A stretch of 64,000 nt of DNA from an uncultured Dehalococcoidia bacterium (lineage in GTDB: Bacteria > Chloroflexota > Dehalococcoidia > UBA2247 > RBG-13-53-26): the NCBI GenBank assembly GCA_964492335.1, contig CAZBJX010000011.1, forward strand, positions 878 through 64,877. Direction: 5' to 3'. Positions 12,802 to 54,367 of this stretch are shown piece by piece. The stretch's first letter is position 1, and each line of letters opens with the position of its first letter. Made by a program: the position numbers and the translations under genes. The notes beneath the pieces are model-generated. The model searched no databases. It worked only from the letters and a program-made list of their open reading frames with translations, and was not told where the DNA came from.

Positions 12802-14513
12802 GCCCCCGCCCCCTTCCATCCCTGCTCCTCGAGTATGTAGAGCACCAGGTCCGGGTTGGCGTACACCTTGCTGCAGTTGGTGCTGGCTTCCATGGCGGCC
12901 GTGATCTCGGTGGCGGCCTGGGGCGAGTTGTAGTAGAAGTCCATCACTGCCCGGTCGTGGTCGCTGATGATGACGTAGCGCGGGGCGATGTCGGGGTCGC
13001 CCAGGGTGCCGAACCGCACCAGCTCGCCGTCCCTCCACTCCAGGGCGCCGTAGCCGAGGTCCTTTCCATACCGCTCGTAGTACTTCAGCGAGCCTATGGG
13101 CGCCCCGCCGATAACGTAGCCCCCCTGCGTCTTCTGGTGGAACATCTCCGCCCCGGCGAAGTACCCCGGGGAGAGGTAGTCCATGGACTGGCTCCCATAC
13201 TTGGCCACGAAGGACAGGGGAGCGGCCACCAGCAGGAACAGGCAGAGCGCCACCGCGGTGGCCCGCCCCTGCAGCAGCTTGACCCCGAAGTAGGCTATGA
13301 CGGGGAGCACGAAGACGAAGACCCGCTGGAAAAGCTCATGCAGGTAGCTCCCGCCGACGACCACGGCCGCTATCCCGCACCCGGCCACCACCGCCACCAT
13401 GGTGACGTCATGATGGGCCATCCGCTTGAACCTCCAGGCGGCGAAGGCCCCCGCAGCAGTCAGCAGCACGAACAGGCCCGAGAAGATGACCCTGGCCCCG
13501 GCCACCGCGGAGTGCGCCTCAGACCCCGTCAGCGGATTCAGCACCCCCTTCTGGGCCGCCTCATCCAGCCGGAGGGCCTGGGTCACGAACTGGCTCAGGC
13601 TCCAGTCGAAGTAGACCGCCGCCCCGTAGATGGACCACGCCCCGACGAACAGCACGGCCAGGGCCAGCAGGTTCAGGGACTTCACCCGCCTGGTGATGAA
13701 GAGCGTGCCCGTGACGGCCAGGGCCACGAAGGACCCCAGCAGGTGCGCCACGGCCGAGGCCCCGTAGATGATGATGGCCACCAGCCGCCTGCTGACGGCG
13801 CCGGGGCCCGGCTGCCAGAACCGGGGCATGGTCAGCACCGCCAGCAGGCTGAACAGGAAGAACACGCCGAAGGCCTGGGCGCCGGTATTCTGGGTCTCGA
13901 ACCAGAAGCCCAGGTAGAAGAGCCACATGGCCGCCCAGCAGTGGTTGGGGTTGGCCCGGCCGATGGTGTTGCGGAAGAGCAGGAACACGGGCAGGAACAT
14001 CAGGCACTGCCACAGGAACGGCACCCAGTCTATCAGACGGGCCAGGCCCTCCATGCTGGCCCCCGACATCTTGATCCCCATGGCCCAGAATATCCAGGCG
14101 GTGGGCCAGTTGTGCTGCCACACCGCCTTCTGGCTGAAGCTGCCGGTGCGGGTGATGAATTCGATGTACCCCATGTCGCCGTAGGCATCGGACAGGAACG
14201 GCTGCGCCCCCCCCACTATCAGCGGGGCCAGCCAGATGGAGACCACCAGGAAGGCCAGTTGCAGGAAGAGAAGCTTCCCGTGGTCCTCCCGGGAGACCCA
14301 CAGGACGGCCGAGGCCACAGTGAGGACCCCCAGGGACACGTAGAACGCGGCCGGGAAGCTGGGAAGCAGCCCCCAGAACCCGATCTGCAACCGCGCCTCG
14401 GCCACGCTCCAGGCCCACAGCGCCAGGGCGATGATGGTGAGGGCCATCGAGGCCCGGGCCGGCGCCAGGCCCTGCAGCCGCCACTCCCCGGCCCGGGCGC
14501 CCACGGCGGTCAC
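12798..14513 (-). CDS. large polytopic membrane protein (12 or more TM) with C-terminal soluble domain; candidate GT-C-type glycosyltransferase or glycan polymerase
   Basis: Hydrophobic helices throughout residues 1-420, then a soluble about 150-aa C-terminal domain. GTG at 14513 overlaps the upstream stop (GTGA); an alternative ATG at 14447. No WWDYG (AglB/PglB) motif. Function is inferred from operon context only. Confidence 0.55.
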   Translation of the reverse strand: MTAVGARAGEWRLQGLAPARASMALTIIALALWAWSVAEARLQIGFWGLLPSFPAAFYVSLGVLTVASAVLWVSREDHGKLLFLQLAFLVVSIWLAPLIVGGAQPFLSDAYGDMGYIEFITRTGSFSQKAVWQHNWPTAWIFWAMGIKMSGASMEGLARLIDWVPFLWQCLMFLPVFLLFRNTIGRANPNHCWAAMWLFYLGFWFETQNTGAQAFGVFFLFSLLAVLTMPRFWQPGPGAVSRRLVAIIIYGASAVAHLLGSFVALAVTGTLFITRRVKSLNLLALAVLFVGAWSIYGAAVYFDWSLSQFVTQALRLDEAAQKGVLNPLTGSEAHSAVAGARVIFSGLFVLLTAAGAFAAWRFKRMAHHDVTMVAVVAGCGIAAVVVGGSYLHELFQRVFVFVLPVIAYFGVKLLQGRATAVALCLFLLVAAPLSFVAKYGSQSMDYLSPGYFAGAEMFHQKTQGGYVIGGAPIGSLKYYERYGKDLGYGALEWRDGELVRFGTLGDPDIAPRYVIISDHDRAVMDFYYNSPQAATEITAAMEASTNCSKVYANPDLVLYILEEQGWKGAGA

Positions 14514-15406
14514 AGCTCTCCCCGCAGCAGGGAGAAGGTCTCGCGCGCCTGCTCCGCCCTCGAGACGCCGACCGCCACGCCGCTCAGCGACGGCAGCGCG
14601 GCCACGTAGGCCGCCGCCTCGGCCGGCTTCACGTACCCCGCCGCCAGGATGCTGAAGGCAATTACCTCCGCTCCCGGCACCTGGCGCAGGGCCTCCTCGC
14701 ACGCCTCCTTCGAGGGGCACATCTGGAAGCCCGCAGGATTGAAGGAGGCCGCCAGCGCCACGCCGCGGGGGTCGATGCCCCACTCCCGGAACCTCCTCAC
14801 CAGGTACGGCAGGTTGCGGGTCTCGAAGCCGGGCTTGACGCCGCGGCCCGACATGTACTCGATGTGGGCCTCCGCCACCCATTTCATGTCCAGCGCCAGG
14901 GCCATGTCCGTCAGCAGCTCGTGGAGCATGACGGAGGCCAGCACGCACTTCCCCCCGGCGGCAGACCTCACGCGGGAGGTCTCCAGGGAGAGGTAGCTCC
15001 GCAGCAGCGCCGCCGGGTCCCCGAAGAGCGCCCCACGGGCCCCGCTGGCCACGGCCCGCCAGTTGCCAGACGCCAAGATCTGCCGGCCCACCCCCCTGGC
15101 CAGGCCCGGCACTCCGCCGGCCCGCACCGCCATCCTGACGTACTCATAAGCATAGGGCACAATGACATAGAGCCTCAGCCCCTCCGGCTTCCTGTCCCGC
15201 ACCAGCCTCCGCAGTATGCCCAGGGTGGTCTCACTGGCGCTGAACATGAACCCGTCCGCCCCGTGGTCCAGGGCGGCGGCCACCAGGCCGGCCCCGCGCT
15301 CAGGGCTGCCCACGTCGGCCCCCCGGGAAGCAGCCCTGGCCTGCGACAGATGGCTTATCCCGTGGAAGGGGTTGTCGCCCACCAGCAGCAGCCTCTTCCC
15401 GTCCAT
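14510..15406 (-). CDS. hypothetical protein (possibly TIM-barrel enzyme), unknown function
   Basis: ATG at 15406 immediately after the upstream TAG (TAGCATG). No family recognised from sequence alone. Confidence 0.45.
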   Translation of the reverse strand: MDGKRLLLVGDNPFHGISHLSQARAASRGADVGSPERGAGLVAAALDHGADGFMFSASETTLGILRRLVRDRKPEGLRLYVIVPYAYEYVRMAVRAGGVPGLARGVGRQILASGNWRAVASGARGALFGDPAALLRSYLSLETSRVRSAAGGKCVLASVMLHELLTDMALALDMKWVAEAHIEYMSGRGVKPGFETRNLPYLVRRFREWGIDPRGVALAASFNPAGFQMCPSKEACEEALRQVPGAEVIAFSILAAGYVKPAEAAAYVAALPSLSGVAVGVSRAEQARETFSLLRGEL

Positions 15407-15407
15407 G

Positions 15408-16394
15408 CTAGCGCACCCCACCACCCATGCCCTTCATGGCGTCGGTGATCCTCTCCACCTGGCTGGCGGCATCGAAGCCGGGCTCCGCCACCCCGCCCTC
15501 CAGGATGGACTGCACGAAGGCGCAATCCTCGCGGACGTACTCGGAGCCGCCGATGAAGAAGGGCACCGCATCGCCCAGGTCGTGCCGGTGCCAGGTGCTG
15601 ACCCGGCCGGCCAGGGACAACTCCACCCGGTCCTCGTTGACCCTGAGGGCCCCCTTCGGCCCCTGCACCACCACCTCGAACTCCGGCATGCGGTGCTCCG
15701 GCCGGCACCAGGATGTCCTGATCTCCCCCTTCAGGCCGCCGGGGGTGACCACGGAGCACTCCGCCTCGTCTTCCGCCGGGCCACCCAGAAGGGACCTGAC
15801 CTGCGCACCGGTGACATCCATGGGCCCGAACAGCCACAGCGCCAGGTCGACGGCGTGACACCCCAGGTCGTCGATGGCCCCACCCCTGGCCGAGGCCTTC
15901 CCGCCGCCCCTGGCGCCGCAGAAGTCCGAGGACCAGGCGCAGGCCTCAAACGAGGACGGCGGGCCCAGTACGCCCTCTCCAAGCATCTGCTTCGCCTTCG
16001 CGAAGGTGACCGAGAACCGGCGGTTGTAGCCCACCATGCTGACGCCGCCCCAGACCCTGGCCAGCGCGGCGGCCTCCGCCGCCTCCGGGAAGCTGGTGGC
16101 CAGCGGCTTCTCCACGAAGACATGCCGGGCAATGCCCGCCTGGTACACCTGCTTCAGTACGGGGAAATGGGAGCGGGCGGGGGTGGTGATATACACCGCG
16201 TCCAGCCCCAAGCCGGCCAGTTCCTCCACGCCGGCCACCACCCGGACCGCCGGGAGGAACCTGCCGGCAAACCGGCGCACCAGCGGGCTGATCTCGCAGA
16301 AGGCCACCAGTTCGGCCTCCTCCATGGAGCCCAGAATGCTGCCATGCAGCAGCGCCATCTTGCCCAGCCCCACCACACCAACGCGCACCTTCAT
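15408..16394 (-). CDS. Gfo/Idh/MocA family oxidoreductase (second copy)
   Basis: MKVRVGVVGLGKMALLHGS Rossmann motif, EKPLA motif. ATG overlaps the GT2 stop (ATGA). Confidence 0.85.
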   Translation of the reverse strand: MKVRVGVVGLGKMALLHGSILGSMEEAELVAFCEISPLVRRFAGRFLPAVRVVAGVEELAGLGLDAVYITTPARSHFPVLKQVYQAGIARHVFVEKPLATSFPEAAEAAALARVWGGVSMVGYNRRFSVTFAKAKQMLGEGVLGPPSSFEACAWSSDFCGARGGGKASARGGAIDDLGCHAVDLALWLFGPMDVTGAQVRSLLGGPAEDEAECSVVTPGGLKGEIRTSWCRPEHRMPEFEVVVQGPKGALRVNEDRVELSLAGRVSTWHRHDLGDAVPFFIGGSEYVREDCAFVQSILEGGVAEPGFDAASQVERITDAMKGMGGGVR

Positions 16395-17449
16395 CGCCCG
16401 TAGATCCAGACCCCGAAGACGTACCCCGTGGCCATCAGGGAGAGGTTGGCCACGATGGCCGCCGCCTGCGGCAGGCTGGCCGGCCGGTAGAAGCGGACCA
16501 GCCGCCCGCCGATCGACCGGAAGAGCAGCCGGCGCAGAAAGACGCTCTCCGCGGCCAGCGGACGGCTGCCGTACCGCGACACCAGACCCTTCATCAGCGC
16601 CCTAGTGTGCCCCTCGCGCAGGCAGAAGTCAAGCATGTAGGAGGGCTTCGCCCTGCCGGCCACCACCTTGTGGTGGACCACGGCGTCGCGGCGAAAGACG
16701 ATGCGGCCGCCAGGCATGTGCTTCCTGATCCGCAGGCACATCTCCGCCTCTTCGCCGCCGGCGGGGTTGAACTTCTTGCGGCCTCCCTCGCACCTTCCCA
16801 GGCTGGTCTCCCAGAGGCCCGCCTTCTGGAAGACCTCCCGCCGGAAGGCCATATTGCTGCCAGTGACGTTCCGGATGGAGCCATCGGCCTCCACGATGAG
16901 GGCCTTGTGACCGGTGCAGCCGATCACGAAATCGAACTCCACGGGGAACCACAGCGGAGGCCGCCCTCCCGGCCAGGCGGGGACCGCCTCACCGCCTACC
17001 GCCACCACCAGGGGGTCATCGAAGGCCGCCGCCAGGCTGGCCAGCCAGTCCTTCTCCGCCACCGCGTCGTCGTCCAGGAAGGCCACCACTTCGCCGGTGG
17101 ACGCGCCCACGGCCACGTTCCTGGTCTCCGACAGGCCGGGGCGGCCGGTGGAGAGGAGCAGGGTCACCCGGGATCCCAGTATCGCCCCCAGGCGCTGGTA
17201 GAGGGCCTCGTTGTGGTCGATGGCCACTATGACCTGGTGGGGCGCCAGGGTCTGCGCCAGGGCGGATTCCACTGCCTCCAGCGTGTCCTGCAGGCGCTCC
17301 TGGGTATAAGCGCAGATGACCACCGACACGCTGAGGGGACTTGCGTCCTCCCCGCGAGCGGTGGTCCGCCCGGAGGCGCCTGCTGCCGGCTCGGGTCCTG
17401 GCTGTCTGCGCTCGGCTCCGGCTACGCCTCCATCTGCCCCGGGCGCCAC
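16391..17449 (-). CDS. glycosyltransferase family 2
   Basis: GT2 N-terminal signature LSVSVVICAYTQERL, DxD (LDDDAV). There is no in-frame ATG before residue 230 of the ORF, so the start must be GTG (candidates 17449 or 17326-17332); start uncertain. Confidence 0.7.
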   Translation of the reverse strand: MAPGADGGVAGAERRQPGPEPAAGASGRTTARGEDASPLSVSVVICAYTQERLQDTLEAVESALAQTLAPHQVIVAIDHNEALYQRLGAILGSRVTLLLSTGRPGLSETRNVAVGASTGEVVAFLDDDAVAEKDWLASLAAAFDDPLVVAVGGEAVPAWPGGRPPLWFPVEFDFVIGCTGHKALIVEADGSIRNVTGSNMAFRREVFQKAGLWETSLGRCEGGRKKFNPAGGEEAEMCLRIRKHMPGGRIVFRRDAVVHHKVVAGRAKPSYMLDFCLREGHTRALMKGLVSRYGSRPLAAESVFLRRLLFRSIGGRLVRFYRPASLPQAAAIVANLSLMATGYVFGVWIYGR

Positions 17450-18240
17450 GCGCCGAGCCGAGCCATGATCTTCAAATGCTGCCACCCGGCCTTCCAACTG
17501 TGAAGCTTCGTTTCCCCGATACGCGATTCGTACCGCACCGGGATCTCGCGCACCCTGAGCTTCATGCGGCTGGCCTTGATGGCGATCTCCGGCTCTATGG
17601 CGAACCCGCCGGAGGATATCCCCATCCGGCTCAGGCAGCACTTCCTGATGCCGTACAGCCCGGTGGAATAGTCTCCCGCCTGGAAGCGATAAATCCGCCT
17701 CATTATACCCTGAAACACGGCGTTGCCAAGCTGGTTGAAGAGGGGGATGTTGTCCCGGCCGGTCGCCCTGGACCCGTACACCAGGTCGCAGGTCTCCAGG
17801 GCCTCGGTCATGCCCGGGATGGCCTCCGGCGGATAGGTGCCGTCGGCATCGATGAAGATGACGACATCCCCCCGCGCATGCCTGACGCCGGTGAGCATGG
17901 CCTTGCCCTTGCCGCCGTTCCGGGCAAGGCGGACCACGCCGCAGGGGAACCGGCTGGCGACCAGGGACGTGGCATCGGACGACCCGTCATCCACCACCAG
18001 CACCTCGTGCTGCCCATCGATGGCCCGGTACAGCCTCTCCAGGACCACGGGGAGCCCCTCCTCCTCGTTGTAGGCGGGTATTATCACCGTGGCCGCGATC
18101 CGGGGCCCCACCTCGGCCCACTTCAGGACCGTCTCCCCGCACGTGGTTTCGTGGCGGCCGCTCAGGAAGTCCACCGGCAGGACCGGCCGGCCGACCGCGA
18201 GATCATTCAGTTCCAGGCGCTCATCGAGTTCCATGCCCAT
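17422..18240 (-). CDS. GT2 polyprenol-phosphate sugar synthase (dolichol-phosphate mannosyltransferase DPM1-like)
   Basis: ATG at 18240 with AAGGAG RBS 5 nt upstream. Motifs TVIIPAYNEEEGL, VVDDGSSD, DADGTYPPE, and a C-terminal region typical of the DPM1/GtrB family. Confidence 0.8.
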   Translation of the reverse strand: MGMELDERLELNDLAVGRPVLPVDFLSGRHETTCGETVLKWAEVGPRIAATVIIPAYNEEEGLPVVLERLYRAIDGQHEVLVVDDGSSDATSLVASRFPCGVVRLARNGGKGKAMLTGVRHARGDVVIFIDADGTYPPEAIPGMTEALETCDLVYGSRATGRDNIPLFNQLGNAVFQGIMRRIYRFQAGDYSTGLYGIRKCCLSRMGISSGGFAIEPEIAIKASRMKLRVREIPVRYESRIGETKLHSWKAGWQHLKIMARLGAWRPGQMEA

Positions 18241-18360: not shown

Positions 18361-18389
18361 AAAAGAAAAACCGACCTCAAGGTCGGTTT
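18361..18389 (-). terminator. rho-independent terminator at the 3-prime end of leader RNA A
   Basis: Minus-strand hairpin AAACCGACC-TTGA-GGTCGGTTT followed by TTTTTCTTTT (plus-strand A-tract 18361-18370). It sits upstream of the GT2 gene on the same strand. Confidence 0.75.
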
Positions 18390-18650
18390 CACTACTGGCT
18401 CCCTGTTCCCCAAGTGACCACTTACGGGCAACAGTTCATCGCCCCCGGGCAGACTCCAGAATGCGCCTACAAGTCAGTCTCCTGTATTATCGCCCCCTCC
18501 GCTTTCCATACCGGCCCGCGCTCACGACCGTGCCGGCGCCACCACAGGAACTCATGGAGTCAACTGCAACCTGCTCCCCGGCCGCGCCCTGTCCCCCGCA
18601 ACCAAGTCCACTTCGCCCCTCTGATCGGACACTTCGGTGACAGCTAACTG
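18361..18650 (-). promoter_or_regulatory. about 290-nt cis-regulatory leader RNA A (candidate riboswitch/attenuator) upstream of the glycan operon
   Basis: Minus-strand promoter TTGACT-N17-TACATC at 18657-18685, no credible ORF, lower GC, terminated by an intrinsic terminator. The 3-prime about 180 nt are homologous to the leader at 36597-36889 (shared TGGTCACTTGGG, GGGAGCCAGTAGTGAAACCGACC, AGGAGACYGAC..TAGGC, TCYGYCCCGGG). Confidence 0.6.
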
Positions 18651-18843
18651 TTATTAGATGTACCATGCGACGCTCGAATAGTCAAGCGTTTTTGCTGCCG
18701 TTTTGCACGCAATGGCACCGGTCCCCGGAGATGCCGCGGCAGTCTGTCGCCGGGCCCCGGTGCCAGGCCCTGTGGCGCTACTGCCCGAAGGCTGTACCAA
18801 ATCCCGCGAGCATGGTAGTATGAAGGGCAATTCGGGCCAAGCC

Positions 18844-20526
18844 ATGAACATATTGGGGCTGAACTACTACTTCCATGACTCCTCGGCCTGCCTGGTGGCG
18901 GACGGGAAGATCGCCGTGGCCATCGAAGAGGAGCGGCTGACCCGCCAGAAGCACACCCACGAGTTCCCGGAGAAGGCCATCGCGCGCTGCCTGGCCATGG
19001 CCGGCCTGAAGCCCGCGGACATCGACGCGGTGGCGGTTTCCATCAAGCCCACCAAGAACTGGCCCACAAAGGCCCTCTACGCGCTGGCCCACGCGCCCCA
19101 CGCCAAGCCGTTCGTGGCGCACGAGTTGCTCCAGGGGCGCAACCGGCAGCACATGTTCTGGGACTGGTACCGGGGGACCTGGCCGCAGGGGGGCCCCAGG
19201 GTCTACTTCGTGCCCCACCACGTCGCGCATGCCGCCGGCACGTTCCTGGTCTCGCCCTACGAAGAGGCGGCCATCATCAGCCTGGACGGCTCCGGCGAGT
19301 GGTCCACCTCCTTCATCGGGCGGGGGGCCGGCACCCGGGTGGTCCCCTTCTCCGAGAGCTTCTTCCCCAACTCGCTGGGGTCCTTCTACGAGTCGGCCAC
19401 CCAGTTCTGCGGGTTCCGCCCCAACTACGACGAAGGCAAGACCATGGGACTGGCGCCGTTCGGCGACCCGGAGGTGTTCGGCAAGACAGTGGACCGCATG
19501 GTCACCGTCGATGCCGGCGGCGCCATCAAGGTGGACCTGTCCTATTTCCGGTTCCAGTACAACGAGCCGCGGCGCTTCTCCGCGAAGTTCATGGAGGCCT
19601 TCGGCCCTCCGCGCACCGGGAAGGAGTTCGGGGACAACCACAAGAACGTGGCCGCCGCCTTTCAGAAGGCCCTCGAGGACCGGGCCCTGGAGCTGTGCTC
19701 GCTGGCGAGGCAGAGGACCGGGAGCCGGCACCTCATCATCGCGGGGGGCGTGGCCCTCAACAGCGTGATGAACGGGCGCATCCTGCGCGAGGCCGGATTT
19801 GACGACATCTACGTGATGCCGGCGGCGGGAGACAACGGCACCGCCATCGGCGCCGCCTTTCACGTCTACAACAGCGTACTCAACCATCCCCGGGTGTTCG
19901 TGCACGATGATCCCTATCTGGGGACGTCCTATTCCGATGAGCAGATAGCGAGGGTGCTCAGCGGCTGCAAGCTGCGGGCCGCCCGGCAGGACGACATGGC
20001 GGCAACGGCGGCGCGGCTTCTGGCCGACGGCCAGATCCTGGGCTGGTTCCAGGGCCGCATGGAGATCGGCCCCCGGGCCCTGGGCAACCGCAGCATCCTG
20101 GCCAATCCCACCCTGCCCTACATGAAGGACAAGATCAACGCCGAGGTCAAGCACCGCGAGGCCTTCCGGCCCTTCGCCCCTTCCGTTCCGGTGGAGGACA
20201 AGGACACGTACTTCGACATCATCGGGGAAAGCCCGGTCATGCTCAAGGTCTGCCCGGTCCGCCCGGAGATGCGGCAGTTGCTCCCCGCCATCACCCATGT
20301 CGACGGCTCGGCCAGGCTCCACACCGTCACCCGGGACATCAATCCCCTCTTCCACGACCTGCTGCGCAAGTTCGGCGCCCTGACCGGGACCCCCGTGCTC
20401 CTCGACACCAGCTTCAACATCCAGGGTGAGCCGATCGTGGAGTCGCCGGAGGACGCCATCCGCTGCTTCTTCTCCACAGGCATGGACTCGCTGGCGCTGG
20501 GCAGCTTCCTCATCACCAAGGACTGA
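18844..20526 (+). CDS. NodU/CmcH family carbamoyltransferase (O-carbamoyltransferase)
   Basis: N-terminus MNILGLNYYFHDSSACLV matches the family start; conserved HHxAH (VPHHVAHAAG) and C-terminal YrdC/Kae1-like regions. An alternative ATG at 18820. Confidence 0.85.
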   Translation: MNILGLNYYFHDSSACLVADGKIAVAIEEERLTRQKHTHEFPEKAIARCLAMAGLKPADIDAVAVSIKPTKNWPTKALYALAHAPHAKPFVAHELLQGRNRQHMFWDWYRGTWPQGGPRVYFVPHHVAHAAGTFLVSPYEEAAIISLDGSGEWSTSFIGRGAGTRVVPFSESFFPNSLGSFYESATQFCGFRPNYDEGKTMGLAPFGDPEVFGKTVDRMVTVDAGGAIKVDLSYFRFQYNEPRRFSAKFMEAFGPPRTGKEFGDNHKNVAAAFQKALEDRALELCSLARQRTGSRHLIIAGGVALNSVMNGRILREAGFDDIYVMPAAGDNGTAIGAAFHVYNSVLNHPRVFVHDDPYLGTSYSDEQIARVLSGCKLRAARQDDMAATAARLLADGQILGWFQGRMEIGPRALGNRSILANPTLPYMKDKINAEVKHREAFRPFAPSVPVEDKDTYFDIIGESPVMLKVCPVRPEMRQLLPAITHVDGSARLHTVTRDINPLFHDLLRKFGALTGTPVLLDTSFNIQGEPIVESPEDAIRCFFSTGMDSLALGSFLITKD

Positions 20527-20689
20527 GCGGCGGCCCCCGCCGCGCCCGTCCCGGCCGGCGCTTCGCCGGTCAAGCCGGGGCCGGCCCCCAACAGCCTTCG
20601 TGCTCTGCTGCATGCTCCGGCGCCGCCCGGTAAGACCGAAGCTGCCCGCTGCCCGGCAGCGCCGCCCGTTGTTGCCCGGCTGCGCCGTC

Positions 20690-20730
20690 TTGACAGACCG
20701 GCCCGCCAGTAGTACATTTGTACTATAATT
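20690..20730 (+). promoter_or_regulatory. lexA promoter (TTGACA-N17-TACATT, plus downstream TATAAT) with overlapping SOS operator
   Basis: TTGACA at 20690-20695. Perfect palindrome TAGTAC-ATTT-GTACTA at 20710-20725 overlapping the -10, 25 nt upstream of the lexA ATG. Matches the RGTAC-N3-DGTWCB class of LexA boxes. Confidence 0.6.
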
Positions 20731-20750
20731 GATGCGATGAAGGCGGCGCC

Positions 20751-21416
20751 ATGGCCCGGGCATCCCTGAGACGGCAGCAGATACTGAGCTTCATCCGAGA
20801 GTTCATAGAGCGGAAGGGGTATCCCCCCACGGTGAGAGACATCCTGCGCAGCTGCCGCATCAGCTCCCCGGCGGTGGTGCAGCACCACCTCAAGGTGCTG
20901 GAGGGGCAGGGCCACATCAGCCGTGAGCCCGGCATCCGCCGCAGCATCACCCTGGCCGGCAGGCCCGGGCGCGCGGCCAGGGTCCCCCTCCTGGGGCAGA
21001 TTGCGGCGGGCCAGCCCATACCGGTGCCGCAGCCGGACTCCTGGCACGAGGAGCCCCTGGAGATGCTGGAGGTCCCGGCCGGCCTGGCCCCCGGAGGAGG
21101 CGCGCCTGCCGGCGGCGTCTACGCCCTGCAGGTGAAGGGGCAGTCCATGATCGACACCCTCATCGATGATGGCGATATCGTCATCATGCAGGCCGCCAGC
21201 ACCGTCAACAACGGTGAAACGGCGGCGGTGTGGCTCAGGGCGGAGCAGGAGGTCACCCTGAAAAGGGTCTACCGCGAGCGCGGGCGCGTCCGCCTGCAGC
21301 CGGCCAACAGCCAGATGGAGCCCACGTACCACGACCCGGAGAACGTAGAGGTCCGGGGAAGGGTCATCGGCGTCATCCGGGCCCTCGCAGGGCCGGCCCG
21401 GGCCGCCCTTCTCTAA
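20751..21416 (+). CDS. lexA: LexA repressor (S24 peptidase)
   Basis: N-terminal winged HTH (TVRDILRSCRISSPAVVQHHLKVLEGQGHI), Ala-Gly cleavage region, Ser/Lys catalytic dyad region (VKGQSMID ... LKRV). Confidence 0.9.
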   Translation: MARASLRRQQILSFIREFIERKGYPPTVRDILRSCRISSPAVVQHHLKVLEGQGHISREPGIRRSITLAGRPGRAARVPLLGQIAAGQPIPVPQPDSWHEEPLEMLEVPAGLAPGGGAPAGGVYALQVKGQSMIDTLIDDGDIVIMQAASTVNNGETAAVWLRAEQEVTLKRVYRERGRVRLQPANSQMEPTYHDPENVEVRGRVIGVIRALAGPARAALL

Positions 21417-21437
21417 GCCCGCATCCAGGAAACCAGG

Positions 21438-22655
21438 ATGGAAGTCCTCTGTCTCTTCATTCCCCACCCGCCGCCGGGGGAGGCGCGGCCCGGGGCCGCC
21501 GGCAAGCCCGGCCATCGAGATGCCGGCCCGGCGCAAGCCGCGCCGCGGCCCGTGGCCGCCGGCCCCCTCCCCGGAGAAAGCGGTGGCGCCCGGTCCTTCG
21601 AGGCGGTGCTGGACATACTGGACCGCTTCAGCCCCGCCGTGGAGGCGGGGGCCCCGGGCAAAGTGTTCCTCGACGTCACCGGCTCCCGGAAGCTGTACGG
21701 GCCCGCCGCCAGCCTGGCGGACCTGGTCACCCGGGAGGTGCTGCGGGGGTCCGGGCTCCGCTCCCGGGCCGCGGTGGCCGGCGGCAAGTTTGTGGCCGGA
21801 GTGGCCGCGCCCCTGGCCACCGCGGGCCCGCTGGTAGTGCCCCCCGGCCAGGAGAAGCAGTTCCTGGCGCCTCTCCCCGTAGAGCTTCTGCCCGTGTCCC
21901 CGCAGGCCCTGTCCTGGCTCCGGCGGCTGGGACTGCGCCGCCTGGGCCAGGTGGCCGCCCTGCCGGAGAACGCCCTGGCCGGCCAACTGGGCGCGGAAGG
22001 TGTGACCGCCTACCGCCTGGCCAGCGGGATAGACCTGGCGCCGGTGATACCCCGGCCCCGGCCGGACGTCCTGGAGGAAACGCTTTCCTTCGAGGCGCCT
22101 CCGGAGAGCCTGGGGGCCCTGCTGGCCGCCCTGGACAGGCTGCTGGACCGGCTGGTGCCCCTGCTCCGGAAGCGATACCAGGTCTGCAGCCAGATCAGGC
22201 TGTGTTTCATCCTCGATGCCGCCGCGCCCAGCGCGGCCGGCCCCGGCGCCGTCGAGCCAGGCAGAGCCCGTTCCGACGGCGTCCGGCCGCGGCCGGACAG
22301 CGTGAACCTGAAGACGCCCCTGGACTCCAAGCCCGAGATCCTGGGGGTCCTGAAACGCCACCTGGAGGCCGCCGCCTTCCCGGAAGGAATGTCCGGGGTC
22401 CGCCTGTCCCTGGCCCGGCTGGGCGGCGAGGCAGGCCGGCAGGCGCCCCTCTCATCAGCCGCCAGGAGGCGCCAGGCGGAGGCCCTGCAGCGCCTGGAGA
22501 AGGACCTGGGGGCCCGGTTCGGGCCGGGATCCCTGAAGAAGGTGGTGGCCCTGGACCCCGGCTCCCGCATACCGGAGCGCCGCATGGCCCTGGTGGACGC
22601 CGCCGTCGAGCCTCCGGGGCAAAGGGATCAGGGGCAGCCAGGGCATGGGGCATAG
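21438..22655 (+). CDS. imuB: ImuB-like inactive Y-family DNA polymerase homologue
   Basis: Y-family little-finger/thumb-like region (VFLDVTGSRKLYGP) but lacks the N-terminal catalytic acidic residues. Lies 21 nt downstream of lexA and upstream of dnaE2. Confidence 0.65.
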   Translation: MEVLCLFIPHPPPGEARPGAAGKPGHRDAGPAQAAPRPVAAGPLPGESGGARSFEAVLDILDRFSPAVEAGAPGKVFLDVTGSRKLYGPAASLADLVTREVLRGSGLRSRAAVAGGKFVAGVAAPLATAGPLVVPPGQEKQFLAPLPVELLPVSPQALSWLRRLGLRRLGQVAALPENALAGQLGAEGVTAYRLASGIDLAPVIPRPRPDVLEETLSFEAPPESLGALLAALDRLLDRLVPLLRKRYQVCSQIRLCFILDAAAPSAAGPGAVEPGRARSDGVRPRPDSVNLKTPLDSKPEILGVLKRHLEAAAFPEGMSGVRLSLARLGGEAGRQAPLSSAARRRQAEALQRLEKDLGARFGPGSLKKVVALDPGSRIPERRMALVDAAVEPPGQRDQGQPGHGA

Positions 22656-36596: not shown

Positions 36597-36889
36597 ATGC
36601 AAGGCAGTATCAGCACGGGGCTCGATGAAGTTGGTATTCGCGACACCGACCCGAAGGCGGGTCGGGTCTTGATTTTCTGAGGCGCCACCAGCGACAGGCC
36701 CGGGTGAGGGATTGCCCGCCTGCGGAACGACTAACACAGCGGGCAAGGAAGGACTGAGGAGACCGACAATAGGCTGAAGAAAGAAGAATCCGTCCCGGGA
36801 AGCGTTGAACCGCCGTCTGTAATCTGGTCACTTGGGCGGCGGGGAGCCAGTAGTGAAACCGACCCATCTCAGGTCGGTTTTTCTTTTTT
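36597..36889 (+). promoter_or_regulatory. about 290-nt cis-regulatory leader RNA B (paralogue of leader A) upstream of the second DPM1-like GT2 gene
   Basis: Extended -10 promoter TGaTATACT at 36583-36591, no credible ORF, lower GC. Internal hairpin plus T-tract at 36637-36672. 3-prime region homologous to leader A and ends in the same terminator hairpin. Confidence 0.6.
36856..36889 (+). terminator. rho-independent terminator at the 3-prime end of leader RNA B
   Basis: AAACCGACC-CATCTC-AGGTCGGTTT followed by TTTCTTTTTTCC; about 105 nt upstream of the GT2 GTG start. Confidence 0.75.
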
Positions 36890-36996
36890 CCAGGCGGTCG
36901 GTCACCGGGAGGCCCGAATCACCAGGCCGAGGCAGCCGGAGCGAAGTGGCCGGAGATCGACCGAGCGGCCCGGCGGTCATCCAGCAGGAGGAAAGA

Positions 36997-37824
36997 GTGT
37001 TTCAGGGTAAGAAGATCGGCGTAGCGGTGCCGGCCTACAACGAAGAGAAGCTGGTGGCGGCCGTTGTGGAGAACATGCCGGCGATTGTGGACCGCATCTA
37101 CATCGTCGATGACGGCAGCACCGACGGCACCCGGGAAGTCGTGTCCGCGCTCTGCGCGAAGCACCCCAGGCTGCAGCTCATCGAGCACAAGAAGAACAGG
37201 GGCGTCGGGGCCGCCATCGTCACCGGTTACCAGAGGTGCCTCGACGACGGCATGGACATCGCCGTCGTCATGGCCGGGGATGACCAGATGGACCCCATGG
37301 AGCTGCCCAAGCTGCTGACGCCTGTGGCCAACGGGCAGGCAGGCTACTGCAAGGGCAACCGGATGGTCTCCTCCAGCACCATGAAGGGCATGCCGCGGCT
37401 GCGGCGGTTCGGGAACTGGCTGCTGAAGTGGCTCACCCGCGTCTCCTCCGGCAACTACCAGATAGACGATCCCCAGAACGGCTACGCCGCTGTCTCGTCG
37501 GATGCCCTTCAGAGGATCAAGCTGGATGACCTCTATCCCTACTACGGCTACTGCAACCACCTGCTGGCCAAGTTCACCGTGGCCGGGGTCAAAGCCGTAG
37601 AGGTGCCCATACCGGCGCGCTACCAGAAAGAGAAGTCCAAGATCCGGTACGGCAAGTACATCCGGAAGGTGAGCTGGCTCCTGCTCAACAACTTCGCCTG
37701 GAGGATGGAGGTCAAGTGGACCTCCATGACCCGCAGGCCGGCGTCCCGTCAACCCGCGGCCGAGATCCGCGAGATCAGCGAGGCCCCCGAGTTCCTGCCC
37801 GGGGTCTCGCGCCGCGCCAGGTAG
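36997..37824 (+). CDS. GT2 polyprenol-phosphate sugar synthase (DPM1-like), second copy
   Basis: GTG at 36997 with AGGAGG 5 nt upstream. Motifs IGVAVPAYNEE, IVDDGSTDGT, MAGDDQMDP. The ORF-track upstream 55 aa is out of gene. Confidence 0.8.
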   Translation: MFQGKKIGVAVPAYNEEKLVAAVVENMPAIVDRIYIVDDGSTDGTREVVSALCAKHPRLQLIEHKKNRGVGAAIVTGYQRCLDDGMDIAVVMAGDDQMDPMELPKLLTPVANGQAGYCKGNRMVSSSTMKGMPRLRRFGNWLLKWLTRVSSGNYQIDDPQNGYAAVSSDALQRIKLDDLYPYYGYCNHLLAKFTVAGVKAVEVPIPARYQKEKSKIRYGKYIRKVSWLLLNNFAWRMEVKWTSMTRRPASRQPAAEIREISEAPEFLPGVSRRAR

Positions 37825-38045: not shown

Positions 38046-38849
38046 ATGAGGCTGGACTTCACCATCGGGAGGTACCAGGAGCTGTGCGAGGCGATCGTGC
38101 AGTCGGGATACACGCCGATGACCGTGCGCGGCTACCTGGAGGCGGACAGGCTGCCGGCGCGGCTGGCCGTGATCAGACACGATGTTGATTCGACGCCGCG
38201 GCAGGAGCCCAAGATCGCCCGGATCGAGCAGGGTTGCGGCATCAGGGCCACCTACTACTTCAGGCACAGGCGCGGCATATTCCGCCCGGACATCATGCGG
38301 CTGATCGCCGGGATGGGCCATGAGGTAGGCTATCACTACGAGGCCATGGACAAGGGCAAGGGCGACTCGCGCAAGGCCATCGAGATCTTCGGCCGCGAGC
38401 TGGCCGACTTCAGGGAGGTGGTGGAGGTCAGGACCATCAGCATGCACGGCAACCCGCTGACGCGGTGGGACAACCGCGACCTGTGGCGCGATCACGATCC
38501 GGCCAGCTTCGGCCTCTCCGGTGAGGCCTACCTCTCGTTTGACCGGTCCAGGATCGGCTACCTGTCCGACACCGGCCGCACCTGGGGCCCGCGGTTCAAA
38601 GTGAAGGACTGGCTCCCTCCCCGTCCCGGCAGCACCGACCCGGCCTACCCCGTCCCCCCGGTGGACTCGACCGACGACCTGATAGCCCTGCTGCGCGGGC
38701 AGCAGGCGGACCATCTCTACCTGAACACCCACGCTGCCCGATGGGCGGACGGCCCGCCGGGCTGGGCCCGGCACTATGCGGAGGACCAGGCAGTGCGGAT
38801 GGTCAAGCGCCTGGTGGCCCTGGCGCGCCGCCCCGCTCCCCCCCCATGA
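38046..38849 (+). CDS. divergent polysaccharide deacetylase-like (CE4-like) protein
   Basis: Motif VIRHDVDS followed by H-rich segments (GHEVGYHYE, SMHGNP) resembling NodB-homology metal-binding motifs. Assignment is tentative. Confidence 0.4.
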   Translation: MRLDFTIGRYQELCEAIVQSGYTPMTVRGYLEADRLPARLAVIRHDVDSTPRQEPKIARIEQGCGIRATYYFRHRRGIFRPDIMRLIAGMGHEVGYHYEAMDKGKGDSRKAIEIFGRELADFREVVEVRTISMHGNPLTRWDNRDLWRDHDPASFGLSGEAYLSFDRSRIGYLSDTGRTWGPRFKVKDWLPPRPGSTDPAYPVPPVDSTDDLIALLRGQQADHLYLNTHAARWADGPPGWARHYAEDQAVRMVKRLVALARRPAPPP

Positions 38850-38899
38850 TGAGAGGCGCCGGCCCGTGTATAATGAGTCCGGCACGGAGGTAACGCTAC

Positions 38900-39934
38900 A
38901 TGACCACAGTGGAAGTCAATGCCCCTGTCACCGTTGAGGAGTGGCGGGCCTTTGTGGACAGCCGGCCTGAGGCCACCTACGCCCACCTCCCCGGGTGGCA
39001 GGCGGTCCTGCGGGACAGCCTGGGGCACAGGCCTTACTACGTTTTCGCCCGCAATGAAGCCGGCCGGCTCTGCGGGGTGCTGCCGCTGTTCCAGGTCCGC
39101 AGCATCCTCTCCGGGAGCCACCTGGTGTCCACCCCATTTGTCAGCGAGTGCGGCCCCGTGGCCGAATCGGACGAGGCGCTCAGGGCCCTGGTGGACCGGG
39201 CCCGGGGCCTCTGCGACGAGCTCGGGTGCCGGTACATGGAGATCCGGGCATCGCGCCAGCTGCCCCTGGACCTGCCGGTGAGCGAGTACTTCTACACCTA
39301 CTTCGTCCCGCTGTCCGAGCCGCAGAAGGCATGGAAGGCCCTCGACCACCGGACGCGGAACGCGGTCAACAGGTCCCGCAAGAGGGGCGTGGCGGTCAGC
39401 ACGGACGACTCGCCGGGCGCCATGAAGGCCTTCTACGAGGTGAACCTGCGGACCAAGACCCGGCTGGGATCACCGGCCCACCCCCTGGAGTTCTTCCAGG
39501 CGATGCAGCGGGAGCTGGGCGACTGCTTCCGGCTCTACACCGCCGACTACCAGGGCCGCGCGATCTCGGCCGGCGTGGCCATACGCTACAACGGGGTGGT
39601 CAACGCCACCCACCAGGCCTCGGATCGCAGCTACCTGGAGCACCACCCCAACGAAGCCGTGTCCTGGCAGCAGATGGAGGACGGAGGCCGGGACGGCTTC
39701 CACTACCTCGATTTCGGCAAGACGCCGGCGGACAACCCGGGGCTGGCACAGTACAAGAAGAAGTGGAAGGCCGAGGAGAAGCAGCTCTATTACTACTACT
39801 ACCCGAGCGTACCGAAGCTGATGGGGTCGGACCGGCAGGGGACCAGGTTCAAGTTGGTCACCGGGGTGTGGAAGAGGCTGCCTCTCTCCATCGTCCGGCG
39901 GCTGGGCCCCTTCGCCTTCAGGCAGCTCGACTAG
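38900..39934 (+). CDS. FemAB-like / BioF2-like GNAT-fold acyltransferase (second copy)
   Basis: Same family pattern as 6564..7646 (two GNAT-like halves, HYLDFGKTPADNPGLAQYKKKW). ATG at 38900 preceded by GGAGG. Confidence 0.6.
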   Translation: MTTVEVNAPVTVEEWRAFVDSRPEATYAHLPGWQAVLRDSLGHRPYYVFARNEAGRLCGVLPLFQVRSILSGSHLVSTPFVSECGPVAESDEALRALVDRARGLCDELGCRYMEIRASRQLPLDLPVSEYFYTYFVPLSEPQKAWKALDHRTRNAVNRSRKRGVAVSTDDSPGAMKAFYEVNLRTKTRLGSPAHPLEFFQAMQRELGDCFRLYTADYQGRAISAGVAIRYNGVVNATHQASDRSYLEHHPNEAVSWQQMEDGGRDGFHYLDFGKTPADNPGLAQYKKKWKAEEKQLYYYYYPSVPKLMGSDRQGTRFKLVTGVWKRLPLSIVRRLGPFAFRQLD

Positions 39935-39967
39935 CGGGCGGGCCGCGGGGAAGCTGGAAGGACAACG

Positions 39968-41047
39968 ATGAAGATACTGGTAGACCTCAATCACCCGGTG
40001 GACATCAATTTCTTCAAGAACGCCATCAGACTGTGGACGGCGGAGCACGGCTGCCAGGTGGACATCTGCCTCCAGCCCCGGGGCAAGATGGTGGCCATCC
40101 TCCAGAGCGAGCTCCCGGAGTATGCCTTCACCACCATGGGCACCTTTCAGAAGACGATGGCCCGCAAGATCCTGATGCACGCCTGGCGGTTCCCCCAGTT
40201 CGCCAATCACGTGCGCCGGGGCCGGTACGACGTGGTGGCCTCCTTCGGCGGGATCGTGGTCTCCCACGCCACCTGGCTGCTGGGCAAGCCCTCCGTCATC
40301 TTCGATGACGACATCGAGTACGGCATCGGCTACTGGCCCTACAAGCCCTTCGCCACCCGGCTGCTGCTCCCGGCCCAGGTCCCGGCCACCGGCAGGAACA
40401 TCATGCGCTACAAGGGGTTCAAGGAACTGGCTTACCTGCACCCCAACTACTTCCGGCCCGACGAGGGGGCCCTTGCCGAGTACGGCCTGGAGCCATCCTC
40501 ATACGTCTTCGTCCGGGAGGTCAGCAAGGTCAGCGGGAACTACGCCCACCTGGAGACCGGCGGGCTGGCCGGGGTCTGCGCGCGGGTGAAGGAACAGGGG
40601 CTCATGGTGGTCCTCTCCCTGGAGGACAAGTCCCTGAAGGACCAGTTTGCCCCCCACTGCATCATCCTCCAGGAGCCGGTAAGGGACATCCACTCGCTGA
40701 TGCACTTCGCCCGGCTGACCATCTCCTCCGGGGACACCATGGCCCGGGAGTCATGCCTGGCAGGCACCCCGGTCATCTACACCGGGGGCCGGACCATGTC
40801 GGTCAACTCCGAGCTGGTCCGGAAGGGCATCTTCTTCCAGCCCGGCGCCGGTCAGCCCACCATGGGCCTGGTCAACATGATCGTGGAGCAGGGCCTCAAG
40901 GAGAAGACCGGCCGGATACTGCGGGAGGCCCTGTCGGGCGAGTGGGAGGACACCACCAGGGTGATCGTATCCAACGTGCTCGAGGCCGGGGCTGCCAGCG
41001 CCCGCGCAGGCCGGCCGGCAAGGGAGCGCAATGGCAAGACAGGATAG
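39968..41047 (+). CDS. DUF354 family protein (GT-B-like, glycosyltransferase/epimerase-related)
   Basis: N-terminus MKILVDLNHPVDINFFKNAI matches the DUF354/COG1817 consensus start (MKIWIDI.NP..V.FF). Confidence 0.65.
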   Translation: MKILVDLNHPVDINFFKNAIRLWTAEHGCQVDICLQPRGKMVAILQSELPEYAFTTMGTFQKTMARKILMHAWRFPQFANHVRRGRYDVVASFGGIVVSHATWLLGKPSVIFDDDIEYGIGYWPYKPFATRLLLPAQVPATGRNIMRYKGFKELAYLHPNYFRPDEGALAEYGLEPSSYVFVREVSKVSGNYAHLETGGLAGVCARVKEQGLMVVLSLEDKSLKDQFAPHCIILQEPVRDIHSLMHFARLTISSGDTMARESCLAGTPVIYTGGRTMSVNSELVRKGIFFQPGAGQPTMGLVNMIVEQGLKEKTGRILREALSGEWEDTTRVIVSNVLEAGAASARAGRPARERNGKTG

Positions 41048-41807
41048 GGCCACCCCGCCAGCCCCGGGAGAGCAGGGCCCGGCGATGGAGCCCATGCCGC
41101 AGGCCATCAGGCAGGAGGACCGGGAGTACTTCGACAGCCGGCAGGAGAAGGCCGACGCCATACTGGCGGACATCCAGTCCCTGGGGCATCCCGACATCGG
41201 TGGCCGTCGCATACCGGTCCTCGAGGTGGGCGCCAACAGCTGCTTCATCGCCCAGCGCCTGGCCAGCGTCACCCGGTGGGACATCCATTGCCTGGAGATC
41301 GAGGCGGAGCGGCTGTTCAAGTACCCCGAGATCTGCCGCTCGTTCAAGTCCGTCCTGGCCGACGCCACCGCCATCCCCTTCAAGGACGCGTCCTTCGATC
41401 TGGTGTTCTGCAATCACACGCTGGAGCACATCGTGCCCTACCGGGCCTGCATCAGCGAGATGCTGCGGGTCACCAGGGCCGGCGGACTCCTCTACCTGGC
41501 CTTCCCCAACCGCGACCGCCTGGTGGACGAGATCGGACTGGGCTGGTCCAAGACGAAGTCGAACCTGGCCTGGTACTTCGACCGGGCCTTCCGGGCCTTC
41601 ACCATCGAGAGCCGGGTGGACCACCACATCGGCCTGGGATGCGGGGAGACCAGGGTGGCCTGCCGGGGGCACAGGGTGACCTGCCTGAGCAAGGGCCACG
41701 CCACCCGCTCCCTGGGGAAGACCGCCCGGCGCATCGCCGGGCGGGTCCCGGCCGGCATCTTCGACCGGTTCTCCCCGGTGGGCGTGTACCTGGTGGAGAA
41801 ACGGTAG
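41031..41807 (+). CDS. class I SAM-dependent methyltransferase
   Basis: Motif I-like VLEVGANSCFIAQRL, acidic loop DIHCLE, motif FDLVFCNHTLEH. Start overlaps the DUF354 tail; an alternative ATG at 41082. Confidence 0.7.
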   Translation: MARQDRATPPAPGEQGPAMEPMPQAIRQEDREYFDSRQEKADAILADIQSLGHPDIGGRRIPVLEVGANSCFIAQRLASVTRWDIHCLEIEAERLFKYPEICRSFKSVLADATAIPFKDASFDLVFCNHTLEHIVPYRACISEMLRVTRAGGLLYLAFPNRDRLVDEIGLGWSKTKSNLAWYFDRAFRAFTIESRVDHHIGLGCGETRVACRGHRVTCLSKGHATRSLGKTARRIAGRVPAGIFDRFSPVGVYLVEKR

Positions 41808-41809
41808 CC

Positions 41810-42967
41810 GTGGTCATCGCCATCGTCGAGGCCATGGACCCCGATTCCCCGGCCATCGGGGGCGGAGAGACCTACTCGCGAAACCTGCTGCAGTACCTCC
41901 TGAAGACCGGGGTGCCCACGTTCTTCATCGGCGTGTCTGCCGCCAGGGGCCGGACCACCGAGGGCCATTTCACCTTCCTGCCGGTCTCCAGCAGGACAAC
42001 CCTGGGCAACCAGGGGTTCGTGCTGCGGCTGGCCCTGCGCCGGGCCTGCGCTTCGCTGCCCCGCGGCGCCATCGTCCACGTCCAGCGCCCGGAATACGCG
42101 CTGCCCTTCGTCCTGTTCTGCCATGGGCGCCCCAGAGTGGTTACACTTCATGGGATGATATTGCACGGGGTGAGGCTCAAACAGTCCCCCATGGTGGCCC
42201 GGGCTTACAGGATGGTGGAGTCGATATGCCTGCGGCGCAGCGCTGCTGTAATCGCCGTGGATGAAGGCACCAGGGAGTTCTACGAGAAGGAGTACCCCTG
42301 GCTGCGAGGAAGGCTCCGCGTGGTGCCCATCGGGATAGACCTGGGCCGGTTCCGTATCATGGACCGCGCCGCCATGAGGGCGGCGCACGGTTTCGGTGCC
42401 GCGGACAAGGTGGTCATGTTTGTCGGCCGCCTGGAGATCGAGAAGGACTTGGGCTTTCTGATCGAGAGCTTCCGCCTGGTCCTCCCCCGCGTGCCGGAGG
42501 CGCGCCTGGCGCTGGTGGGCGACGGGCGCCACCGCGCGGCGCTGGAGGAGATGGCCCGGGACCTGGTGCCCGACAGGGTCCTCTTCACGGGGTCCAGGCC
42601 GCCGGATTCCATCCCGGAGTTGCTTAACTGCGCCGATGTGCTAACATTGTGCTCGATGTACGAAGGCAGCCCGACCACGGTCAAGGAGGCCCTGGCCTGC
42701 GGTGTCCCGGTGGTGACCGCACCCGTGGGAGACGTGGCCCGGGTCATCAAGGAGAGCGCCACCGGCCGGATCGTCCCCAAGGATCCGGCCCGGTATGCCG
42801 CGGCCATCATCGAGGTGCTGACTGCCCCTGATCCGGAGGGCGCGCGGAGGGCCTGCGTCCGGGCCGCCGCGGAGTTCGGGTTCGACCGGGTCGGCGAGCG
42901 CACCGCAGAGGTCTACGAGGAAGTGGCCGCCCATGGGCAGATGAAGCGCGCGCGTGCGCAGAGGTAA
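41810..42967 (+). CDS. glycosyltransferase family 4
   Basis: GTG at 41810 after GGAGAAA, 2 nt past the methyltransferase stop. GT4 C-terminal motif (CSMYEGSPTTVKEALACGVPVVTAPVGD). Confidence 0.8.
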   Translation: MVIAIVEAMDPDSPAIGGGETYSRNLLQYLLKTGVPTFFIGVSAARGRTTEGHFTFLPVSSRTTLGNQGFVLRLALRRACASLPRGAIVHVQRPEYALPFVLFCHGRPRVVTLHGMILHGVRLKQSPMVARAYRMVESICLRRSAAVIAVDEGTREFYEKEYPWLRGRLRVVPIGIDLGRFRIMDRAAMRAAHGFGAADKVVMFVGRLEIEKDLGFLIESFRLVLPRVPEARLALVGDGRHRAALEEMARDLVPDRVLFTGSRPPDSIPELLNCADVLTLCSMYEGSPTTVKEALACGVPVVTAPVGDVARVIKESATGRIVPKDPARYAAAIIEVLTAPDPEGARRACVRAAAEFGFDRVGERTAEVYEEVAAHGQMKRARAQR

Positions 42968-42971
42968 CAGC

Positions 42972-54028: not shown

Positions 54029-54225
54029 AGCGCCGCCGGCCCCCGACCACCACCTCTCACGCCGGACGCCTTCCTCGAAGCGGCCCGGGGAAGGATTCTC
54101 CCTGGCTGCGCCGACTAAGAAGAGTACAGAGACCCGGCGGGGGGGGCGGCAGCCGGTGAGGCAGTGTGAGACTGAAGGGCACAGGGGGACGCAGTTGCTG
54201 CCCTTTCCCGCAGCGGGCTTACGCG

Positions 54226-54254
54226 GAGCGCCTGGCTTGAGCCAGGCGCTCCGC
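54226..54254 (+). terminator. terminator-like perfect hairpin downstream of the cysteine synthase gene
   Basis: GGAGCGCCTGGCT-TGA-GCCAGGCGCTCC (13-bp stem) followed by GCAGTTTCC, a weak U-tract. Confidence 0.3.
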
Positions 54255-54367
54255 AGTTTCCGGCCGGCCCGGCGGCCGCCGGGCCGGCGCAGGGCGGCCG
54301 GCCGCGCCACTCCCGGCTGCGCAGACACCTTGACAGCCCGAGCGCGGTCAGTGTAGCCTCTACACCG

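Follow-up and report, generated by a model that had tools for sequence, protein, structure and literature searches.

In C. difficile all four class II c-di-GMP riboswitches act as ON switches, their transcripts going up 4- to 42-fold at raised c-di-GMP; Cdi-2-4, situated upstream of pilA1, terminates transcription without c-di-GMP and allows read-through with it (PMC6200980, PMC6366702). According to the account in PMC9495366, the crystal structure of a C. acetobutylicum RNA revealed a kink-turn and a triple helix in which the ligand is embedded (Smith et al. 2011); the same account describes a c-di-GMP-II aptamer combined with a group I self-splicing ribozyme in C. difficile (Lee et al. 2010). 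GEMM-I (c-di-GMP-I, RF01051) shares ligand and kind of target gene with c-di-GMP-II (RF01786), but it has a three-helix Y shape in place of the kink-turn and pseudoknot (PMC9495366).

We analysed a stretch of 64,000 nucleotides (the window) from an uncultured Dehalococcoidia bacterium, in which an earlier note had pointed to two leaders, A and B, with a shared near-identical element ending in GAAACCGACC-loop-GGTCGGTTTT and a U-tract; the element was indeed found, once on each strand. Very probably the leaders carry c-di-GMP-II riboswitches with intrinsic terminators, predicted ON switches of two glycan clusters. As in the RF01786 family and in Cdi-2-4, both copies have helices P1, P2 and P3 and a pseudoknot that joins the P3 loop to the 3′ tail; as in Cdi-2-4, an intrinsic terminator competes with the aptamer 3′ end and ON behaviour is predicted; as is general for c-di-GMP-II, both copies sit 5′ of surface, adhesion or polysaccharide genes. 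Unlike Cdi-2-4 with its Clostridium host, they are found in an uncultured high-GC (68%) member of Chloroflexota, and in place of pilin or adhesin genes they precede glycan operons led by GT2 genes (AglJ/AglG-like). The C. difficile aptamer–ribozyme has the same aptamer class and ON-type logic, whereas the output of A and B is a plain terminator and Rfam finds no group I intron in the leaders. The elements consist of the following features.

18372..18455, minus strand: c-di-GMP-II riboswitch aptamer, copy A (RF01786, model positions 1-84 of 84, 63.8 bits)
18413..18417, minus strand: P3-loop half of the pseudoknot in copy A, UCACU, complementary to AGUGA at 18389-18393
18361..18390, minus strand: intrinsic terminator A, GAAACCGACC-TTGA-GGTCGGTTTT followed by TCTTTT (terminator scan)
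36789..36873, plus strand: c-di-GMP-II riboswitch aptamer, copy B (RF01786, model positions 1-84 of 84, 64.6 bits)
36828..36832, plus strand: P3-loop half of the pseudoknot in copy B, UCACU, complementary to AGUGA at 36852-36856
36855..36889, plus strand: intrinsic terminator B, GAAACCGACC-CATCTCA-GGTCGGTTTT followed by TCTTTTTT (terminator scan)

With gathering thresholds applied, Rfam 15 gave exactly two matches in the whole window, both to c-di-GMP-II. Membership was defined as a score at or above the RF01786 gathering score (53.5 bits) over the full model; both copies exceed this score by ~10 bits, with E = 6.6e-12 in the whole window and 4.9e-14 in the local region for copy A, and 3.8e-12 and 2.6e-14, respectively, for copy B. 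All core positions are intact: in the alignment every upper-case consensus position is matched in both copies, the pseudoknot pair excepted, and the single-stranded core GAUGAA, GGAGCCAGU, GUG and AACCG is present. Each copy lies in sense orientation in a 5′ UTR, with a platform overlapping the aptamer 3′ end.

The earlier note had matched the leaders to no known riboswitch class, and it had named an Rfam match to a known element as the outcome that would speak against its reading; both matches are of this kind (63.8 and 64.6 versus 53.5 bits), and that part of the reading therefore falls. An unknown class is ruled out by full-length RF01786 matches above the gathering score; the two leaders add new members to a known class, and their expression platform is a standard one. 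This removes a false lead: routine scanning with Rfam is enough to place the ‘unclassifiable’ leader in a textbook riboswitch class. The note did list c-di-GMP among its candidate ligands, and the class to which both copies are assigned points to this one. A permissive Rfam scan of the window gave nothing further of relevance; for GEMM-I there was no window match at gathering score or at E ≤ 1, and sensitive local scans (E ≤ 10) for any further known RNA in the 5′ portions of A and B gave only noise.

Two features of the aptamers depart from the family consensus. Helix P1 is very short in both copies (two to three contiguous inner pairs), and many of its pairs are flagged by Rfam as non-canonical. 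The pseudoknot, GCAC/GUGC in the Rfam consensus, is altered on both sides in A and in B; one G-C pair has become U-A, and pairing is therefore preserved. We counted the weak P1 and the non-consensus pseudoknot sequence against the riboswitch assignment.

GEMM-I variants sense cGAMP. One could speculate, by the same token, that the UCAC/GUGA pseudoknot marks a sub-type with the same fold and with a different cyclic dinucleotide, or a related nucleotide, as ligand; A, B and more than 115 further loci listed carry U-A where the consensus has G-C, and weaker matches to further families of this Rfam clan, suppressed in the output, covered the same sequence as the matches of A and B. We consider a different ligand improbable: the change is compensatory and leaves the helix in place, the remaining highly conserved positions (GAUGAA, GGAGCCAGU, AACCG) fit the consensus, the canonical RF01786 model is the best scorer in its clan, and the genes downstream belong to the classic c-di-GMP repertoire. 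Among the matches listed, the first genes downstream of relatives code for GT2 glycosyltransferases (six cases), type IV pilus ATPase/MshEN, Wzz/GNVR, Poly_export and surface-repeat/SLH proteins, a set typical of c-di-GMP control. Thus, c-di-GMP would be the ligand of both copies.

Relatives were collected by scanning GTDB representative genomes with a pattern derived from the aptamer 3′ half, which gave at least 115 stretches; 107 distinct aptamer cores among the matches listed were aligned, and pairs were counted for inner P1, P2, P3 and the pseudoknot. In these 107 relatives, 92.8% of cells in inner P1, P2 and P3 were paired, compared with 72.0% in shuffles; the covariation score was 0.582 versus 0.185 in shuffled alignments (none of 500 reached 0.582), and slid controls gave only 0.07–0.15. 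Changes on both sides were seen in 13 of 19 pairs overall and in all eight pairs of P3. Further homologous copies with compensatory changes, whose absence would by the earlier note have spoken against its reading, do exist; the pattern scan gave at least 115 loci. As the pattern itself fixed UCACU/AGUGA, the pseudoknot is invariant in this set and yields no independent covariation from it. The earlier note had also read covariation from loops that differ over conserved stems, which was invalid: the terminator stems of A and B are identical, and the difference between loops is therefore no covariation. Genuine compensatory changes between the two copies are found instead in P3, where three pairs are U-A in one copy and C-G in the other.

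The note's word ‘paralogous’ holds for family membership and fails for recent duplication: A and B are 78% identical, and there are closer copies in other genomes (at least three to A and at least 14 to B), which makes them members of a family rather than products of a recent duplication. The loci of the sub-type, at least 115 in all, include 70 from Chloroflexota and 34 from Bacillota among the matches listed, a census biased by the search pattern. Uncultured Dehalococcoidia-type Chloroflexota are thus rich in riboswitches of this class, often with several per MAG; the literature we searched contained no paper linking c-di-GMP-II, or any c-di-GMP riboswitch, to Chloroflexi/Dehalococcoidia. 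In a phylum with few cultured members, riboswitch reporters could be a cheap handle on second-messenger signalling.

Some relatives differ in architecture. Tandem c-di-GMP-II aptamers were seen in L063, L086 and L102 (86–155 nt apart) and in L071 (~2.3 kb apart); single leaders with tandem aptamers are found in some Bacillota, Negativicutes and Chloroflexi MAGs. In L014, L020 and L044/L108 (Acidobacteriota / Ca. Multivoradales) the c-di-GMP-II copies are followed by no U-tract terminator; CGTCGGTCG, complementary to the aptamer tail, stands there directly before a GAGG Shine-Dalgarno-like sequence, pointing to an expression platform that works on translation.

The window is syntenic over >6 kb, at 79–85% nucleotide identity, with three loci (L012, L057 and L075) from uncultured Dehalococcoidia/Chloroflexi MAGs; in all three the arrangement of copy B, riboswitch and GT2 operon, is conserved. 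Contigs with identical proteins came from metagenome assemblies only. Homologues of the first GT2 of operon A in metagenomes (≤67% identity) had no c-di-GMP-II element, so there is no orthologous leader to compare with copy A; we counted this, too, against the riboswitch assignment. Beside one such homologue (52% identity), in the low-GC metagenome contig L122, a divergent c-di-GMP-I (GEMM-I) riboswitch was found at 2019-2106 on the minus strand (85 bits).

Both copies could have decayed, leaving ligand-unresponsive aptamers and hairpins that serve as constitutive terminators or insulators; P1 is weak in A and in B, and in C. difficile five of 16 predicted c-di-GMP riboswitches are non-functional (PMC6366702). 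Scores ~10 bits over the gathering threshold with core positions intact, as well as the retention of copy B with its operon in three MAGs, argue against decay; furthermore, a constitutive terminator ahead of a biosynthetic operon of 6–13 kb would silence that operon. We would therefore give decay little credence in comparison with working riboswitches.

The terminator hairpins, as the earlier note proposed, are real by the scan calls as well as by their energies, which fall below those of shuffles. Stems A (18390-18367, minus strand) and B (36855-36881, plus strand) have 10 bp each and are followed by a T-tract; the folding energy of terminator A is −14.8 kcal/mol (z = −3.6 versus dinucleotide shuffles), that of terminator B −14.4 kcal/mol (z = −4.4). 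The ligand-free minimum-energy fold includes terminator A; for B, both the minimum-energy and the centroid folds include it. In each copy aptamer and terminator overlap by 19 nt, the 5′ arm of the terminator (18390-18381 in A) lying within the aptamer. The aptamer 3′ tail, GUGAAACCGACC, therefore has a triple role as pseudoknot strand, 3′ strand of P1 and 5′ arm of the terminator. Among the matches listed, the tail forms the 5′ arm of a hairpin with a T-rich tail in 90 of 113 relatives with enough flanking sequence; in these relatives the terminator stem covaries at position 8 (A-U 46, G-C 15, G-U 17, C-G 3) and at position 10 (C-G 64, G-C 13). The distance from the end of the U-tract to the start codon is 120 nt in A (ATG at 18240) and 107 nt in B (GTG at 36997), close to the ~105–125 nt that the earlier note had estimated.

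As the terminator 5′ arm is the aptamer tail, ligand binding and termination should be mutually exclusive, and from this exclusion an ON switch is predicted. With no ligand, GUGAAACCGACC would pair locally with GGUCGGUUU, the hairpin with its U-tract would form and transcription would end ~110–120 nt ahead of the GT2 gene. Binding of c-di-GMP would keep the tail in the aptamer and block the terminator, and RNA polymerase would enter the operon. High c-di-GMP would thus raise expression of two clusters for polysaccharide or lipid-linked-glycan biosynthesis. We infer the ON direction of A and B from this anatomy and the C. difficile precedent; the general reading of the earlier note, a riboswitch with a conditional intrinsic terminator before two glycan operons, appears to be right.

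Alternatively, the switch could work in the OFF direction, or act mainly on translation or mRNA stability instead of termination. A 5′ UTR of ~110–120 nt follows each terminator, a spacing that we also counted against the termination-based reading; a second GTCGGTC after terminator B is conserved in L057 and L075; the Acidobacteriota relatives with GUCGGUCG beside GAGG and no U-tract indicate that non-terminator platforms exist in c-di-GMP-II. On the other hand, the aptamer tail is the terminator 5′ arm in A and in B, so that binding excludes termination, the same design is present in 90 of 113 relatives among the matches listed, and the class II examples assayed are ON switches (PMC6200980). 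We regard such an alternative as very unlikely and retain the ON switch acting through termination.

The second GTCGGTC, complementary to ACCGAC of the aptamer tail, is located at 36897-36903 on the plus strand. Just 5′ of aptamer B, at 36773-36785 on the same strand, we observed a purine tract, GAAGAAAGAAGAA, complementary to the terminator U-tract and paired with it in the minimum-energy fold. Either of them could provide an extra regulatory layer or stabilisation of the read-through mRNA. The block GGAGACYGAC was considered as an antiterminator against the terminator 3′ arm and rejected; the duplex has 10 bp including G-U, and its energies are no better than those of shuffles (z = −1.8 in B and −0.6 in A, with a family-wide median of −0.08).

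The genes under predicted control are as follows.

17422..18240, minus strand: first regulated gene of operon A, GT2 glycosyltransferase, GT2-A (PF00535, E = 3.2e-30)
16391-17641, minus strand: second GT2, AglG-like, given as longest ORF (NF041394, 206.6 bits, under cut-off)
15408-16394, minus strand: GFO/IDH/MocA oxidoreductase of operon A
36997..37824, plus strand: first regulated gene of operon B, GT2 glycosyltransferase, GT2-B (PF00535, E = 5.9e-26)
38046..42967, plus strand: rest of operon B, with a 267-aa unknown protein, GNAT/FemAB-like, DUF354, SAM methyltransferase and GT4

Several proteins without a Pfam match follow the first three genes of operon A, and DUF362, ATP-grasp, GNAT and GT4 genes extend the same-strand run down to ~5.2 kb. 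The product of the first gene of operon B has 275 aa, the same as in public gene calls on identical contigs. The earlier note had called both GT2 genes DPM1-like. The GT2 part stands, and DPM1-like is a fair description rather than an assignment: in NCBIfam both come nearest to polyprenol-phosphate glycosyltransferases (AglJ, dolichyl-P hexose transferase, ArnC), with every score under the curated cut-off, the best model for GT2-A being AglJ (TIGR04182, 115 bits, under cut-off). GT2-A and GT2-B are only 23% identical as proteins.

With riboswitches in front of two long glycan-biosynthesis clusters, surface glycan output is predicted to rise with c-di-GMP. Genes for GGDEF, EAL or HD-GYP proteins were not seen among the window ORFs scanned, which we counted against the riboswitch reading, 64 kb being a small sample of the genome. 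The residual interest of the locus is in the phylum, in the glycan-pathway targets and in a promoter-like motif that accompanies many Chloroflexota c-di-GMP-II riboswitches.

The AglJ-like/AglG-like pair of operon A resembles, with sub-cut-off scores, archaeal enzymes of dolichol-phosphate N-glycosylation. A NodU/CmcH-type carbamoyltransferase gene (18712-20526, plus strand) is divergent from operon A; together with the pair it points to carbamoylated sugars in a pathway for lipid-linked glycans. Large ORFs in or beside the glycan clusters are located at 12798-14948 (minus strand, 716 aa), 20118-22361 (minus strand, 747 aa) and 42954-44933 (plus strand, 659 aa). None of the three had a Pfam match, and the ones of 716 and 659 aa had none in NCBIfam either; the ORF of 747 aa may be spurious, as it runs antisense over the 3′ end of the carbamoyltransferase ORF and its GC3 is ambiguous (0.79 versus 0.78).

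The 5′ parts of the leaders did not behave as the earlier note had described. Its observations that the leaders are AT-richer (GC 0.58 in A and 0.57 in B versus 0.68 in the window) and have no credible ORF were borne out, leader ORFs being antisense only, with GC3 of 0.56 compared with 0.88–0.91 in real genes. By contrast, sigma-70 promoters placed by the note at 18685 and 36583 were not called by the scan on the leader strand, the criterion being two hexamers with 16–18 nt spacing on the correct strand. Leader A has a candidate, TTGACT-17-TACATC, with a poor −10 element; the site in leader B is an extended −10 (TGATATACT) with no −35, conserved in one of three orthologous loci (L057 only). 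As the divergent carbamoyltransferase starts at ~18712, the distal part of leader A is shared promoter space.

Similarity between the leaders, said to extend over 180 nt of ordered blocks, is confined to the ~100 nt of aptamer and terminator, and this, not ~290 nt, is the size of the functional unit. The AGGAGACYGAC block matches at 10 of 12 positions between A and B; 196 of 1000 shuffles do as well, so the upstream block is within chance. Two of the blocks as quoted in the note are slightly off for copy A, whose sequence reads GATGAACTG and TCTGCCCGGGG. Could the entire ~290-nt leader nevertheless be a new unclassified riboswitch or a protein-dependent attenuator? The 5′ 130–200 nt of A and B have no Rfam match and, in the case of B, are conserved in three orthologous loci; but the shared part is a full-length c-di-GMP-II match, the 5′ parts of A and B are alike no more than by chance, and the features conserved in the 5′ part of B are a terminator-like hairpin and a promoter-like motif, not a covarying fold. 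We find a unit of that length extremely improbable next to an aptamer with its terminator. The two features of the 5′ part of leader B, together with the loci that carry the motif, are these.

36638..36678, plus strand: T1, a strong hairpin with U-tract in the 5′ part of leader B (terminator scan)
36707..36734, plus strand: promoter-like bipartite motif AGGGATT-N14-CGACTAA in leader B, 55 nt upstream of the aptamer
Loci with the motif, all Chloroflexota among the matches listed: L012, L021, L029, L045, L052, L057, L058, L064, L070, L072
Loci with the motif, continued: L075, L078, L083, L094, L095, L101, L106, L113, L114

The consensus of the motif is (C/T)GAGGGATT-N13-(A/G)CGACTAA, also given as GAGGGATT-N13-GCGACTAA, with fixed spacing and an unconserved spacer. 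The copy in leader B is conserved in L012, L057, L075, L021, L058 and L094; leader A has no good copy. CGACTAA is enriched 24-fold in the 250 nt upstream of c-di-GMP-II aptamers in the loci among the matches listed; there, GG stands exactly 19 nt ahead of CGACTAA, with TT after it, in each of the 17 upstream copies. Again among the matches listed, the motif precedes 17 of the 72 aptamers from Chloroflexota but none of the 47 found in other phyla. It also occurs with no riboswitch, in six further copies in the loci listed and at 54092-54118 (plus strand) in the window.

Such a pattern would suit a promoter read by an alternative sigma factor; the layout resembles that of Bacillus sigma-H promoters (AGGAwwT-N14-GAAT). 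An RNA structure was considered for the motif and rejected, there being no consistent covarying stem; a CAA-GGGA-TTG mini-hairpin is seen at the motif in close relatives only. Fixed spacing with an unconserved spacer makes a promoter at the DNA level preferable to RNA structure, and the riboswitch B transcript has a candidate for its true promoter in the 36707-36734 motif. If so, this transcript would start near 36742, and the leader would be ~150 nt long, not 307. It is conceivable, if rather doubtful, that a dedicated alternative-sigma promoter (GAGGGATT-N13-GCGACTAA) launches c-di-GMP-II transcripts in this Chloroflexota lineage; if true, AglJ/AglG-like-led glycan operons would be under a two-input gate, sigma factor AND c-di-GMP, and glycosylation of the cell surface or S-layer would come under an RNA-based c-di-GMP regulon.

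T1 reads CCGACCCG-AAGG-CGGGTCGG, followed by a U-rich tail, and folds at −22.2 kcal/mol (z = −3.7). Conserved in L012, L057 and L075, it is situated in the divergent intergenic region, ahead of the promoter-like motif. A very short transcript could end there, or the hairpin could insulate the riboswitch promoter.

The stretch 54119-54262 (plus strand), directly after the motif copy at 54092-54118, had no Rfam match and could encode a small RNA; its first ~110 nt are rich in GC and lead up to a hairpin, GGAGCGCCTGGC-TTGA-GCCAGGCGCTCC (54226-54253), after which a sigma-70-like TTGACA stands ahead of a pfkB kinase gene (54368).
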